Assembly: GCA_963977015.1 (NCBI GenBank) | Contig: CAXBMO010000020.1 | Location: 49,944 to 113,943 of the forward strand | Length of the DNA stretch: 64,000 bases | From: an uncultured bacterium | GTDB taxonomy: Bacteria > Verrucomicrobiota > Verrucomicrobiia > Verrucomicrobiales > DEV007 | Reading direction: 5' to 3' | Shown: positions 60,360-64,000 of the stretch, one piece after another | How the letters are laid out: the number at the start of each line of letters is the position of its first letter | How positions within the stretch are numbered: position 1 is the stretch's first letter | Translations under genes and position numbers: made by a program | Notes under the pieces: model-generated | Database searches by the model: none | What the model saw: the letters and a program-made list of their open reading frames with translations, nothing else | What the model was told of the DNA's origin: nothing

Positions 60360-61166
60360 TTAGAACGTCTGGCTCGCAATCATGAGGAGCCCGAAAATCC
60401 CGAAAATGACCATCGCCCGAACCAAGGTCATTCGCCTCTGAATCACCTGCGTATGGAGCATGGTATCCCACGTTGCGACACCCCGATTTTGGACGCGCAA
60501 AAAGGCCAGAAAATTGGCCACGAATTGGAACACGGGAAGGCCGGCAGCCATGCCCAACATCCACACCAGAATCGAGCGGTAGAGACAGGTCGCCGCCTTC
60601 GGCTTTTCACCGTCCGGACCTTGAACCCGCAGGTTGAAGAGGTACTTGCCCAAGGTTGCGCCAAAGCAGGCCAGAAAGATCCACTCGATCAGATGCCACG
60701 CAAAAATGGAGGCCAGTCCAATCTTCTGGAGTTCCCGAAAATAGGCCGCTTCTTCCTCCGTTTGGTCGCCTTTCAAAATTCGCATCAACTGATCCATGTC
60801 GGAGATCGCGACTGGGTCCGGCGCAAACAGATACAAAACGATGGTTTGAAACAGCATCAAATCGAACATCCGTGCGCCAAAACGCGACATCGCATGGGTC
60901 GCAAGGCTTCCCGGGGGAACCGTCGGCTCCGGAGGAAGCGTGGGCACATCGGTCTCGGCTGCCAGTTTGGCATCGAGCTTCTCGCGCTCCACTTCCTGAA
61001 TCAACGTCAGGGCGGCCGGAATATCCCGCAGCGGCTTCCAGGCGTCTTCTCCCTTCACCCAGCCCATGGTATCACCGGACACTTCGGCAGCTCGCAACAT
61101 TTCACGAACCCGGTAACGCGTGAAGGGCCCGCGTTTGTCCCCGTCTTGGACGATAAAGATTTCCAT
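60360..61166 (-). CDS. GYF_2 (DUF4339) plus RDD family membrane protein
   Basis: GDKRGPF...GWVKGEDAWKPL; RFGARMFD, ATLGKYLFNLRV, WDTMLHTQV. Confidence 0.85.
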   Translation of the reverse strand: MEIFIVQDGDKRGPFTRYRVREMLRAAEVSGDTMGWVKGEDAWKPLRDIPAALTLIQEVEREKLDAKLAAETDVPTLPPEPTVPPGSLATHAMSRFGARMFDLMLFQTIVLYLFAPDPVAISDMDQLMRILKGDQTEEEAAYFRELQKIGLASIFAWHLIEWIFLACFGATLGKYLFNLRVQGPDGEKPKAATCLYRSILVWMLGMAAGLPVFQFVANFLAFLRVQNRGVATWDTMLHTQVIQRRMTLVRAMVIFGIFGLLMIASQTF

Positions 61167-61230
61167 GGTATTGAGGTGGCAATCAGAGGCTGTCAGTCGT
61201 AACACCTCGTGATTCGCATACGTTCCCACG

Positions 61231-61893
61231 ATGATTTCCTGTCGGCAAGTAACACGCACGTTTGTTTCTGGTGATCGCTCCATTCGAGCGGTTCAAAATG
61301 TCGATCTGGACGTCGATTCCGGGGAATTTCTCGCCATTACCGGAGCGAGCGGAAGCGGCAAAAGTACCCTGCTTCACTTGATGGGCAGCCTGGACACCCC
61401 GGACAGCGGCGAATTGGAGGTGGCGGGATTGCCGCTCCATTCGGCGACCGAGGCCGAGAAGACCCGATTTCGGCAGGAAGATGTGGGAATCATCTTCCAG
61501 TTCTTCAACCTCATGCCGACCCTTACCGTCGCCGAGAACGTGATGATGCCGCTGCTTCTCCGTGGGGAGCGCCGTAGTGGTTCAGCCGAAAGAGCGGCTG
61601 AGTTGCTCGATTTGGTCGGTCTCGGGCAACGCCGCGATCATCTTTCACACCAATTGAGCGGTGGCGAGATGCAACGGGTCGCGATCGCACGCGCATTGGC
61701 GCCCAAGCCCAAGCTGATCGTCGCCGACGAACCGACCGGGAACCTGGATTCAAAAAATCGCGACCGGGTTCTCGAGATTCTCGGCAAGATCCATGGCGAG
61801 AAACTGGCGACCATGGTCGTGGTGACCCATGAAGACGCCGTTGCCGAGGCCGCCTCGCGACAAGTTGAAATGCGCGACGGCAAGCTGGTTTAG
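61231..61893 (+). CDS. ABC transporter ATP-binding protein (LolD/MacB-like)
   Basis: [36 protein letters not shown]. Confidence 0.93.
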
Positions 61894-62105: not shown

Positions 62106-63404
62106 CTAGGCTTGATTCATCGTTTTGGCGCACTCTTTCGTCCATTTCCCGATACCACTCACCAATCGCCCAATCACCTCGTGAGTCAGTCCATTCTGGA
62201 CGAGCTCATCGGCCAATTCGCCTGCCACTTTCGGAAGTTTCTCGATCATCGACAGGATTCGATCACGCGCGATTTCAGGATCCAACTCCAGCTCCAACGC
62301 GCACTTCTCCCAACTCCGTGCTGAAACTCCGCCCTTGCCTCGAAGCAGGTATTTCCCGCCGATCTTCATGGCCAGCTTCGCCCGCCGCGGATCAACCGTT
62401 TTCGCGTATGGCAAGGTGCTGATCAAATCGTAAAGCGGAGCCATTTCCACCCGGCCACGAGGCGCGATGATGAGCGAATAATTCTTGGCGTGGGCATCGG
62501 TTCCGGCGATCAGCCAATTGAAGGCCAGCGCATCAAAGAACCGCCAAACGTCCTCTTGAGGTTTGGAGGAATGCTTGCGCAAGAGCGTCACGATCTCCAA
62601 CGGGCCCGGCCCACCTTGGCTTTGATATTTGTTTTGGGGCGGATGGCTCAGGGCCTGGCAAAAGTCTTCCTGGTGGATTCGCCGCATCCCATCGCGAGTG
62701 CGATCGTAGCGCTTCGCGACAAAAACCGGAGTTTCTCCAATCACAATGACCTGAGTGGCCGGCACGCGAAACTCCAGTTTTCGCGCCAATCGCAGGCAAA
62801 AGTGCTCCACCTCCGCTTTCCCTTCGAAGTCATCGGCTGCGGGCTTCAAAATATGGGTCGTCGGGATGGAGCCGGCCGGGATTCCCCAGCGCTTTTTCTT
62901 GGAATCACGGTGAAGCGCGATCTTCGGCTGCGCACCCGCCAAACTGAATTGCCCGTGGTCCTGCGCGAACCGGGTCGCACTGTGGTCGCGCAGCAAGGTG
63001 TGAATCCGGTCCTCGACTTCGCTCTGGGTCAGCCAGTCGATCTCGTCGTTTTGATGGTTGAGGAATTGATCGACCCGGTTGAGCTGGACCAACTGGATCG
63101 CTCCGGCACAATCCTCCCCAACCTTGCTCAAAAGCTGGAAGGAATGGCGATTCGAAACCTGGAACCGTTCGCTCCACTGCTTCAAGACGCCGTCATTGTC
63201 CGGCAACAACCCCCAGAGGAATGCATCCACCTGTTCGTGGCCATGCTCGACGGTCCGCAATGGCATCGACAGTGAGAGCGGAAACGCCAGGCGGCTCGAA
63301 CGCCACTTCTTGTCGTAGCGAAACCGCATTTCGTCCTGTTTTCGGTCCCAATGGATTTCGCCCACGATTTTGTCCTCGTAGATCGCAACGAGTGTCTCGA
63401 TCAT
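62106..63404 (-). CDS. hipA: HipA family Ser/Thr kinase toxin
   Basis: PLSLSMP, GLLPDN, SLAGAQPK, HILKP, RIHQEDFCQAL, DAHAKNYS, APLYDL; catalytic motifs intact. Confidence 0.95.
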   Translation of the reverse strand: MIETLVAIYEDKIVGEIHWDRKQDEMRFRYDKKWRSSRLAFPLSLSMPLRTVEHGHEQVDAFLWGLLPDNDGVLKQWSERFQVSNRHSFQLLSKVGEDCAGAIQLVQLNRVDQFLNHQNDEIDWLTQSEVEDRIHTLLRDHSATRFAQDHGQFSLAGAQPKIALHRDSKKKRWGIPAGSIPTTHILKPAADDFEGKAEVEHFCLRLARKLEFRVPATQVIVIGETPVFVAKRYDRTRDGMRRIHQEDFCQALSHPPQNKYQSQGGPGPLEIVTLLRKHSSKPQEDVWRFFDALAFNWLIAGTDAHAKNYSLIIAPRGRVEMAPLYDLISTLPYAKTVDPRRAKLAMKIGGKYLLRGKGGVSARSWEKCALELELDPEIARDRILSMIEKLPKVAGELADELVQNGLTHEVIGRLVSGIGKWTKECAKTMNQA

Positions 63405-63676
63405 AATTCGTCGTCCTCGAGGTTGGCGGTGAACAGTTCGTCGAGGTCGGTTTCATCGCCATCTTCCGGTTTTTCCTCCAAAAAGAGCTCCAGGTTCAGT
63501 GCGTTCAACGTTGCGAGCACCAGGCGAAGTTCGACCGTTGGTTTCCCTCGCTCAAAGTCGATGATCCACCAGCGGTTGACACCTGCTTTCTCGGCCAGGT
63601 CTTTTTGATTCCAACCCAGTTCCTTGCGCCTCTCCCGTGCGAAGGTGCTCAGGTCTTCGAGATGCTTGATATGCAT
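63401..63676 (-). CDS. hipB: HipB-like XRE/HTH antitoxin
   Basis: RERRKELGWNQKDLAEKAGVNRWWIIDFERGKPT; ATGA overlap with hipA. Confidence 0.9.
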   Translation of the reverse strand: MHIKHLEDLSTFARERRKELGWNQKDLAEKAGVNRWWIIDFERGKPTVELRLVLATLNALNLELFLEEKPEDGDETDLDELFTANLEDDEL

Positions 63677-63682
63677 GTGCTC

Positions 63683-63710
63683 ATGTTAAGTGGGCGTTCG
63701 GCAACATCAA
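63683..63710 (-). promoter_or_regulatory. Putative hipBA promoter (leaderless)
   Basis: Minus strand: TTGATG, 16 nt, TAACAT, 6 nt, ATG; no SD sequence. Confidence 0.55.
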
Positions 63711-64000
63711 GCGAACATGTGGTCGTTCGGCAACATCAGGAGGGTATGTGGTTGTTCGGCAACATCTGGAGAGCAGGTGGTCGTTCGGCAACATTAGGAG
63801 GACATGTGGTCGTTCGGCAACGTCAGGAGGGCATGTGGTCGTTCGGCAACATCAGGAAGGCATGTGGTCGTTCGGCAACATCAGGAGGGCATGTGGTCGT
63901 TCGGCAACATCAGGAAGGTATGTGGTCGTTCGGCAACATCAGGAGGGTATGTGGTCGTTCGGCAACATCAGGAGGGTATGTGGTCGTTCGGCAACATCAG
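63688..64000. repeat. Tandem 29-bp repeat array (at least 11 units, truncated by the window), candidate HipB operator array
   Basis: 20-bp imperfect palindrome ATGTGGTCGTTCGGCAACAT plus a 9-bp linker (CAGGAGGGT-like); palindromes start at 63688, 63717, 63746, 63775, 63804, 63833, 63862, 63891, 63920, 63949 and 63978. Confidence 0.95.

Follow-up and report, generated by a model that had tools for sequence, protein, structure and literature searches.

Predicted HipB operators in a tandem array upstream of hipBA in a marine bacterium of the Verrucomicrobiota

The DNA analysed here, called the window below, is a stretch of 64,000 nt from contig CAXBMO010000020.1 (C20) of a marine bacterium of the Verrucomicrobiota, which is known only from metagenome assemblies and whose genome (assembly GCA_963977015.1, here G000) is 6.9 Mb in size and 95% complete. 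The end of the window, which is also the end of C20, carries the genes of a hipBA operon and, directly upstream of hipB, an array of repeated dyads that we predict to be binding sites of HipB. The features of the locus, in window coordinates, are as follows.

62106-63404, minus strand: hipA, 432 aa, intact; Ser/Thr kinase toxin of the HipA family
63401-63676, minus strand: hipB, 91 aa, intact; antitoxin and repressor with an XRE-type helix-turn-helix (HTH) and an acidic C-terminal tail
63683-63710, minus strand: candidate promoter, weak and sigma-70-like (TTGATG-16 nt-TAACAT), putative and read from the letters alone
63688-64000: tandem array of 11 units, each a 20-bp dyad plus a 9-bp linker, with an exact 29-bp period and cut by the contig end
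63688-63707: unit 1, the predicted promoter-proximal operator, AAGTGGGCGTTCGGCAACAT, the most diverged copy
63688-63832: units 1-5, a diverged, older block in which each unit has substitutions of its own in the 20-mer and/or the linker
63833-64000: units 6-11, a homogeneous, recently amplified block of six identical 20-mers with linkers that differ at one or two positions

The 20-mers start in register at 63688, 63717 and so on up to 63978, and the eleventh unit ends three linker bases in, at the window end. Tandem Repeats Finder (TRF) places the repeat at 63690-64000 with a period of 29, 10.7 copies, 90% matches and no indels (score 496). The consensus 20-mer, ATGTGGTCGTTCGGCAACAT, has 7 symmetric pairs out of 10, corresponding to 14 of its 20 positions, with the first copy beginning 11 nt upstream of the ATG of hipB (63674-63676, minus strand). 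The linkers of 9 bp most commonly read CAGGAGGGT or CAGGAGGGC; that of unit 1, CAAGCGAAC, looks the oldest and resembles the linkers CAAGCACT and CAACCGCT of the array in a related species (G002, see below). The original prediction had described 11 dyads with symmetry at 14 of 20 positions, separated by 9 bp and beginning 11 nt from the hipB ATG, and this description was found to be accurate both on re-reading of the letters and by TRF. With its head-to-tail repeats, homogeneous interior and diverged edges, the array has the form of a variable-number tandem repeat (VNTR) or minisatellite, and as judged from the distribution of substitutions its pattern is that of an older core to which distal units were recently added by amplification. 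An array of clustered regularly interspaced short palindromic repeats (CRISPR) was also considered and was rejected, as the linkers are 9 bp long and nearly constant and are not unique spacers of ~25-40 bp.

A close look at the two genes shows an overlap of 4 nt with hipB immediately upstream of hipA, that is, an XRE/Cro-type antitoxin and a toxin in one operon. HipA matches the Pfam families Couple_hipA (2.9e-23) and HipA_C (2.6e-52), both above the curated cut-offs, and HipB matches HTH_3 (3.7e-8). The closest solved relative of HipA is that of Escherichia coli (PDB: 3tpd, E 7.3e-48), followed by HipA of Shewanella oneidensis (4pu3, 7.8e-25), and the relatives of HipB in PDB are distant ones, namely HipB(Lp) (8ezt, 2.7e-7) and E. 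coli HipB (2wiu_B, 2.2e-3). The motifs SLAGAQPK, TDAHAKN and PLYD of HipA are invariant in an alignment of five homologues. In the same alignment the kinase motifs are intact, namely the P-loop S154-LAGAQ-x-K161, the catalytic D303-A-H-A-K-N308 and the Mg-binding D326, and they align with the counterpart motifs of E. coli HipA, in which we take S150, D309 and D332 to have these roles. The start codon of hipB is consistent with the aligned orthologues. Full domains, invariant kinase motifs and a start codon that matches the orthologues all agree with the earlier claim that hipA and hipB are intact, and judged by domains, motifs and gene order hipBA is a type II toxin-antitoxin module. Its HipA is the only HipA-like match in G000.

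The dyad and the linker have not changed to the same degree. Within the ten complete units, the 20-mers are off consensus at 5 of 200 positions and the linkers at 14 of 90 (Fisher p 9.5e-5), and the polymorphic columns number 4 of 20 in the 20-mer versus 8 of 9 in the linker (p 8.6e-4); these p-values overstate the difference, since the tests treat non-independent copies as independent. With unit 1 left out, the counts are 3 of 180 in the 20-mers and 10 of 81 in the linkers. Public sequencing runs provide a further comparison: 13 are listed, 8 of which contain part of the stretch as Logan contigs (none of them RNA), and four, X1 to X4, were compared with the array. In run X1, a related strain departs from the window sequence at 4 of 108 positions within 20-mers and 9 of 45 within linkers, and its adjacent coding sequence shows 5 differences in 377 positions. 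The direction is the same between species, with 19 of 20 positions of the 20-mer kept in G002 and the linker replaced.

The dyad also belongs to a motif family, ATGT-N3-CG-N2-CG-N3-ACAT, members of which are found again upstream of related hipBA loci from several phyla. The survey drew on the best 80 of at least 579 related hipBA loci in species genomes from Verrucomicrobiota, Acidobacteriota, Alphaproteobacteria, Gammaproteobacteria, Gemmatimonadota, Actinomycetota and other lineages; 3 loci were dropped for too short an upstream flank, leaving 77. The pattern ATGTNNNCGNNCGNNNACAT was sought in the 950 bp upstream with at most 2 mismatches in the 12 fixed positions, and stretches of equal length inside hipA served as the control. 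At least one site is present in 56 of the 77 loci, at least two in 39 and at least three in 27, and the control stretches gave 1 site in total across the 77 loci. The number of sites per locus is distributed as follows.

0 sites: 21 loci
1 site: 17 loci
2 sites: 12 loci
3 sites: 21 loci
4 sites: 3 loci
5 sites: 3 loci

Three is thus the commonest non-zero count and five the maximum, reached in 3 of the 77 loci, one of which is G002. Neighbouring sites lie 26-29 bp apart in 57 of 75 cases and 49-56 bp apart in 11, the latter being consistent with one site missed in between. An unbiased search for 12-mer words recovered the same periodic sites in many loci; it was too noisy for counting, and the motif count was used instead. 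A particularly clear case, taken from an exact-pattern scan, is a high-GC metagenome contig (L035) with a HipA that is 35% identical to the window HipA. It has four 20-mers in mixed orientation at 26-bp spacing, ending 15 nt before hipB; one of them is letter-identical to the window consensus, and the consensus of the four, as read by eye, is the perfect palindrome ATGTGGCCGTACGGCCACAT.

The residue right after the conserved S/G-R of the HipB recognition helix varies in step with positions 5-7 of the operator: loci with K have (C/A)ACC (3 of 3, from two phyla), those with Q mostly have C at position 5, and those with E, D, W or F have G at position 6. This is suggestive of covariation between the recognition helix and the operator half-site, and it is confounded by the relatedness of the loci. 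A survey upstream of related hipB genes for array length and for such covariation had been proposed with the original prediction; the first part now has a clear outcome (at most five sites in the 77 loci), and the second has reached the suggestive stage. On these comparisons, we regard ATGT-N3-CG-N2-CG-N3-ACAT as the cross-phylum operator consensus of this HipB clade, normally predicted as three or four sites at 26-29 bp (~27). The identification of the window dyads as hipBA operators, that is, predicted HipB sites, is well supported, because the dyad is conserved, recurrent and correctly placed upstream of related hipB genes. As a side observation, one surveyed locus in an Acidobacteriaceae genome (L048:1415-2100) carries an array of 11 repeats with a 67-bp period, CRISPR-like by that period, ~100 bp upstream of a hipB homologue; it looks unrelated to the operator motif.

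The same data bear on whether the dyads could serve another protein, be it as replicon iterons, as a partition or centromere-like array or as sites of a different XRE regulator, with the adjacency to hipB being incidental. Such an arrangement, repeats of 20-22 bp in an array, is typical of iterons, and a genuine example exists on another contig of the same genome (C31). Against this, the motif follows hipBA across phyla, with 56 of 77 loci having it directly before hipB, and has no occurrence elsewhere in the genome; moreover, the array is bordered by hipB and a gene for a HAD-family hydrolase, and not by any rep or par gene. We consider such a role very improbable.

Relatives of G000 show how the array varies among orthologous loci. 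A HipA search in 41 genomes (40 relatives and G000) gave matches at E <= 0.001 in 20 of them, G000 included, and clear orthologues by identity are those of G001 (77%), G002 (63%), G012 (49%) and G039 (38%). G001 has no tandem repeat and carries four dyads of the same motif family at 29, 28 and 29 bp. In G002, a 28-bp tandem array of 5.6 copies (5-6 sites) lies directly upstream of hipB and is uninterrupted inside its contig. Its 20-mer has 1 of 20 positions different from the window 20-mer, its linkers are unrelated to the window linkers (8 bp versus 9 bp), and it displays a two-unit super-period of 56 bp that is typical of block duplication. The site counts across the genus are therefore 4 (G001), 5-6 (G002) and 12 (G000, by the contig join described below). 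When the 20-mer was scanned for in 401 genomes of the order, many copies were found in G000 (13) and G002 (5) only, with at most 4 in the others, which is near the reversed control; clean tandem-repeat sites likewise occur only in G002 and G000. The genes downstream of hipA, for an ATP-binding cassette (ABC) ATPase and an RDD/GYF protein, are the same in the window, G001 and G002, so that hipBA sits at an inherited chromosomal position. In the window the longest open reading frames (ORFs) of the RDD/GYF-domain gene (60360-61283, minus strand) and the ABC-transporter ATPase gene (61231-61893, plus strand) overlap head to head by 53 nt, which probably means that one of the two start codons as listed lies too far upstream.

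The plus strand of the array has a peculiarity of its own. From 63605 to 64000 there is no stop codon in any of its three frames, and on the minus strand every unit contains a TGA; the plus-strand linkers read CAGGAGG or CAGGAAG, with AGGAGG 2 nt before an ATG. An array that is open in all three frames and carries AGGAGG before ATG might act as RNA or be translated, for instance as a type III antitoxin-like repeat RNA, a GGA-rich protein sponge or a peptide with a 29-residue period. We find this scarcely credible, given that G002 keeps the dyad and not the linker, the GGA motif or the period (28 versus 29 bp), that the L035 dyads occur in both orientations, and that the period is not a multiple of three. 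The open plus strand and the AGGAGG-ATG are judged to be a by-product of the repeat sequence, the latter because the linkers are not conserved in G002. Two specific candidates were tried and set aside: a CsrA sponge, as no CsrA gene was found in the 95% complete genome and the GGA motif is absent from G002, and a plus-strand coding repeat, as the period of 29 is not divisible by 3 and conservation of the linkers is lacking. A search against Rfam returned one chance-level match outside the array and no family with a meaningful score.

In the candidate promoter of hipBA, unit 1 fills the spacer between the two hexamers, the second of which ends 6 nt short of the hipB ATG. The match to the sigma-70 pattern is 8 of 12 positions, which is below the scan threshold. 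The positional homologue in G002, TTGATG-16-TATAGT, matches at 9 of 12 positions and was reported by the scan, again with the proximal dyad in the spacer. The internal units have CTGATG and are without a -10-like hexamer; by this comparison they do not look like promoters themselves. It was also observed that the -10-like hexamer ends 6-9 nt before the hipB start codon in G000 and G002 (window 63674-63710, minus strand; L011:3083-3120, minus strand; L010:3087-3130) and that G000 is without a Shine-Dalgarno-like sequence, which suggests that the hipB mRNA of this genus may be leaderless or near-leaderless.

The number of units depends on what follows the contig end. In the whole 6.9-Mb genome, the 20-mer with at most 3 mismatches has 13 matches, 11 at the end of C20 and 2 at the start of another contig, C15, compared with 0 forward and 1 reverse for a control with the reversed pattern. 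The 20-mer is thus confined to these two contig ends; a presence at many unrelated loci of the genome, named with the original prediction as a result that would speak against it, was not seen. Positions 1-55 of C15 begin inside a linker, followed by a complete unit, a further linker and a final copy that matches at 18 of 20 bases; beyond this the sequence is unique. The last 31 nt of C20 are the first 31 nt of C15, the sole exact overlap in the range of 12-399 nt, and the smallest join of the two contigs gives 12 sites, all 29 bp apart, of which 11 are full and the terminal one is degenerate. The claim that the array runs past the window edge is thereby confirmed, with a minimum of 12 sites. 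The distal boundary of the array on C15, GGCAAC-N3-GTTGCCTCAC, is also present at the distal array end in G002. We take C15 to be the true continuation because of the 31-nt overlap, the restriction of the unit to these contig ends and the recurrence of the distal boundary in G002. The HAD-family hydrolase gene on C15 points the same way as hipBA, and its end is ~20 nt away from the array; no homologue of it was found within ~1.2 kb upstream of hipB in G001 or G002, and synteny gives no support to the join. The distal boundary is itself a small inverted repeat, GGCAAC-3 nt-GTTGCC followed by TCAC (L001, that is G000:C15, 44-64; L011:3246-3268 in G002), and the genes next to it differ between the two genomes. 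It may be an ancestral duplication boundary or a separate site, and it does not look like an intrinsic terminator, because no T-run follows it.

Could the array be an assembly artefact with about four real copies? The genome contig, an independent metagenome scaffold with identical hipBA (L036) and all Logan contigs of runs X1 to X4 stop inside the array, and none of the Logan contigs spans it. This break is explained by the identity of the last three or four units. However, units 1-8 are each recognisable by their own substitutions and their parts are covered by separate contigs, with 0 differences in X2, X3 and X4 and a diverged allele in X1, and the G002 array of 5-6 copies is uninterrupted within its contig. 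With at least 9 distinguishable units and contigs from four runs, the case of about four real copies, which the original prediction had itself raised, is excluded, and an artefact of any such kind is given almost no weight. Word depths in run X3 are 13.4 for a perfectly periodic contig, 4.6 for the flank and 6.5-7 for array-unique contigs. The resulting ratio of 2-2.9, compared with the 2.7 predicted by the 12-site join, is a weak hint that there is no large hidden expansion beyond 12 sites, word depths not being copy numbers. The array end is most likely about one unit beyond the window. The roughly threefold expansion of the array is real and exceptional; of the earlier wording "three times longer or more", the factor of about three stands (12 sites versus the usual 3-5), and "or more" is unlikely with an end so close to the window edge.

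Taken together, the array is likely to be the set of operators through which hipBA regulates itself, and to have grown in place as a 29-bp unit was duplicated in tandem; we hold this with good though not full confidence, on the basis of sequence comparison. Several points weigh against it. The near-identity of the six distal units reflects recent duplication and is not demonstrated selection. A promoter scan of the window found 0 promoters, so the array could instead be part of a leader transcript or receive read-through transcription from the HAD-hydrolase gene. In S. oneidensis, HipB was found to bind adjacent operators without cooperativity (Wen et al., PMC4150777), which speaks against a simple cooperative model, and extra sites need not, for this reason, tighten repression. 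Finally, other intergenic regions of the genome also carry tandem arrays, made of dyad-bearing units and with periods that three does not divide, and this indicates a general tendency to slippage.

The last two points lead directly to the serious rival, according to which the dyads are indeed HipB operators but their expansion is neutral, probably transient replication slippage, such that only the proximal three or four sites matter and the number drifts. Beside the other arrays of the genome and the missing cooperativity of neighbouring S. oneidensis operators, this account would be favoured by the recent amplification implied by the almost identical units 6-11, by the 56-bp two-unit super-period in G002, and by G001, which has the closest HipA (77%) and only 4 sites, so that the large number is not conserved. 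On the other hand, units 1-5 are old enough for linker changes and yet keep the dyad (5/200 versus 14/90), the same bias is seen in the second strain (4/108 versus 9/45), and two species of the genus independently keep more than 4 sites. Moreover, extra sites, if they are operators, would bind HipB and would hardly leave the pool of free repressor unaffected. On balance we regard a neutral expansion as unlikely, though it has to be taken into account more than any other alternative.

Two other repeat arrays of the genome are on C31, a contig of 75.7 kb. At C31:72003-72133 (L129:2004-2134) there are six tandem 22-bp repeats (TCCGTAAACCGGTTACATTTCA), with three looser copies at 71862-71925, between a gene for a coupling protein of the type IV secretion system (T4SS; T4SS-DNA_transf, 2.3e-56) and a gene for a Rep_3 initiator (Rep3_N, Rep3_C). 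Such classic iterons beside Rep_3 and T4SS coupling genes make it probable that C31 represents a plasmid or else an integrated conjugative element. At C31:32334-32535 (L130:1335-1536), five tandem 40-bp units, each with a GGAATT-N7-AATTCC dyad, lie in the divergent intergenic region of a sulfatase gene and a NAD-dependent epimerase gene, and form a second amplified operator-like array of this genome.

If the array is the hipBA operator region, it could work as follows. Slippage or unequal recombination would have multiplied the 29-bp units. Each dyad would be bound by a HipB dimer, either free or loaded with two HipA, with HipA acting as co-repressor, as extrapolated from E. coli and S. oneidensis. 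Occupation of the proximal dyad, which lies between the -35-like and -10-like hexamers, would repress transcription, and the operon would thereby repress itself. Units 2-12 would be placed upstream of the -35 as auxiliary sites, if the candidate promoter is real, and may load further HipB2-HipA2 units and so raise the local repressor concentration, with more toxin-antitoxin complex held on the DNA than by a four-site promoter. A change in unit number would leave the -35/-10 spacing unaltered, and any effect would have to come via occupancy, that is, through more HipB and HipA beside the promoter, titration of free HipB or higher-order packing.

A bolder version of this idea takes up the toxin-storing filament and the copy-number rheostat of the original prediction. 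In it, the 12 evenly phased operators would build an extended HipB-HipA assembly as a chromosomal sink for up to ~24 HipA, and gain or loss of units would heritably shift the threshold at which free HipA sets off dormancy, which would make the array a contingency-type locus. Such a locus would act through operator number and not through promoter spacing. At 29 bp, or ~2.76 helical turns, every fourth dyad would come to lie on the same face of the DNA, and 12 sites would make three four-site turns. In work by Schumacher from 2015, HipA molecules on neighbouring operators are said to contact each other (dimerise). HipA's N-terminal subdomain is described as being involved in dimerisation during DNA binding and as carrying high-persister mutations (PMC6581861). 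We think this version of the idea doubtful, and less probable than a neutral expansion.

The locus matters in that operator number at a toxin-antitoxin promoter determines the amount of repressor-toxin complex retained on the DNA and the sharpness with which the operon switches. The natural series of 4, 6 and 12 sites on orthologous hipBA offers a test of operator number against HipA thresholds and persistence-type dormancy, and the same series can show whether higher-order HipBA-DNA assemblies scale with site number. If the extra sites are neutral, the locus is an example of slippage acting on a regulatory palindrome.

Among known systems, the Omega repressor of epsilon/zeta plasmids is likewise linked to a toxin-antitoxin pair, binds arrays of 7-10 heptads and polymerises along the DNA; unlike the HipB array, it involves a ribbon-helix-helix protein of an unrelated family and 7-bp heptads without linkers. 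The Rep_3 iterons of C31 are similar as intergenic tandem repeats of ~22 bp, but they stand beside a Rep_3 gene, are direct repeats rather than dyads and have a 22-bp period. The surveyed hipBA loci, including G001 and G002, agree with the window in operator family, in spacing (26-29 bp) and in the location of the sites just upstream of hipB, and differ in having at most five sites versus 12 here.

In E. coli, four operators, TATCC-N8-GGATA, are bound by HipB in a cooperative manner, HipA being the co-repressor (PMC3920265), and the gaps between them are given as 10, 21 and 10 bp in PMC4150777. From an operator of 18 bp, we computed centre-to-centre distances of 28, 39 and 28 bp; the spacing of ~28 bp that had been quoted for E. 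coli therefore holds for two of the three intervals, and the middle one is 39 bp. The E. coli operon resembles the one described here in the order hipB then hipA, the overlapping genes, the homologous HipA, the dyads directly upstream and the two distances of ~28 bp. It differs in its half-site (TATCC versus ATGT-N3-CG), in having 4 sites versus 12 and in its spacing, which in the window is a constant 29 bp owing to the origin of the sites as tandem duplicates, and the window HipB is only distantly related to that of E. coli (E 2e-3).

For S. oneidensis, PMC4150777 reports four GTGTA-N6-TACAC operators with 34-bp gaps, one of them inside hipB, as well as a solved HipA-HipB-DNA ternary complex. 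This operon also has regularly spaced palindromes upstream of hipB, and its outer half-site GTGTA resembles ATGT here; it is unlike the window in its four sites, its 34-bp gaps, the lack of cooperativity between neighbours and its more distant HipA (4pu3, E 8e-25). In our literature search, no paper came up that describes an enlarged or tandemly repeated set of hipB operators, the published systems having four sites. The components and the logic of the locus are those of known hipBA autoregulation, and what is new is the exceptional dosage of operators.

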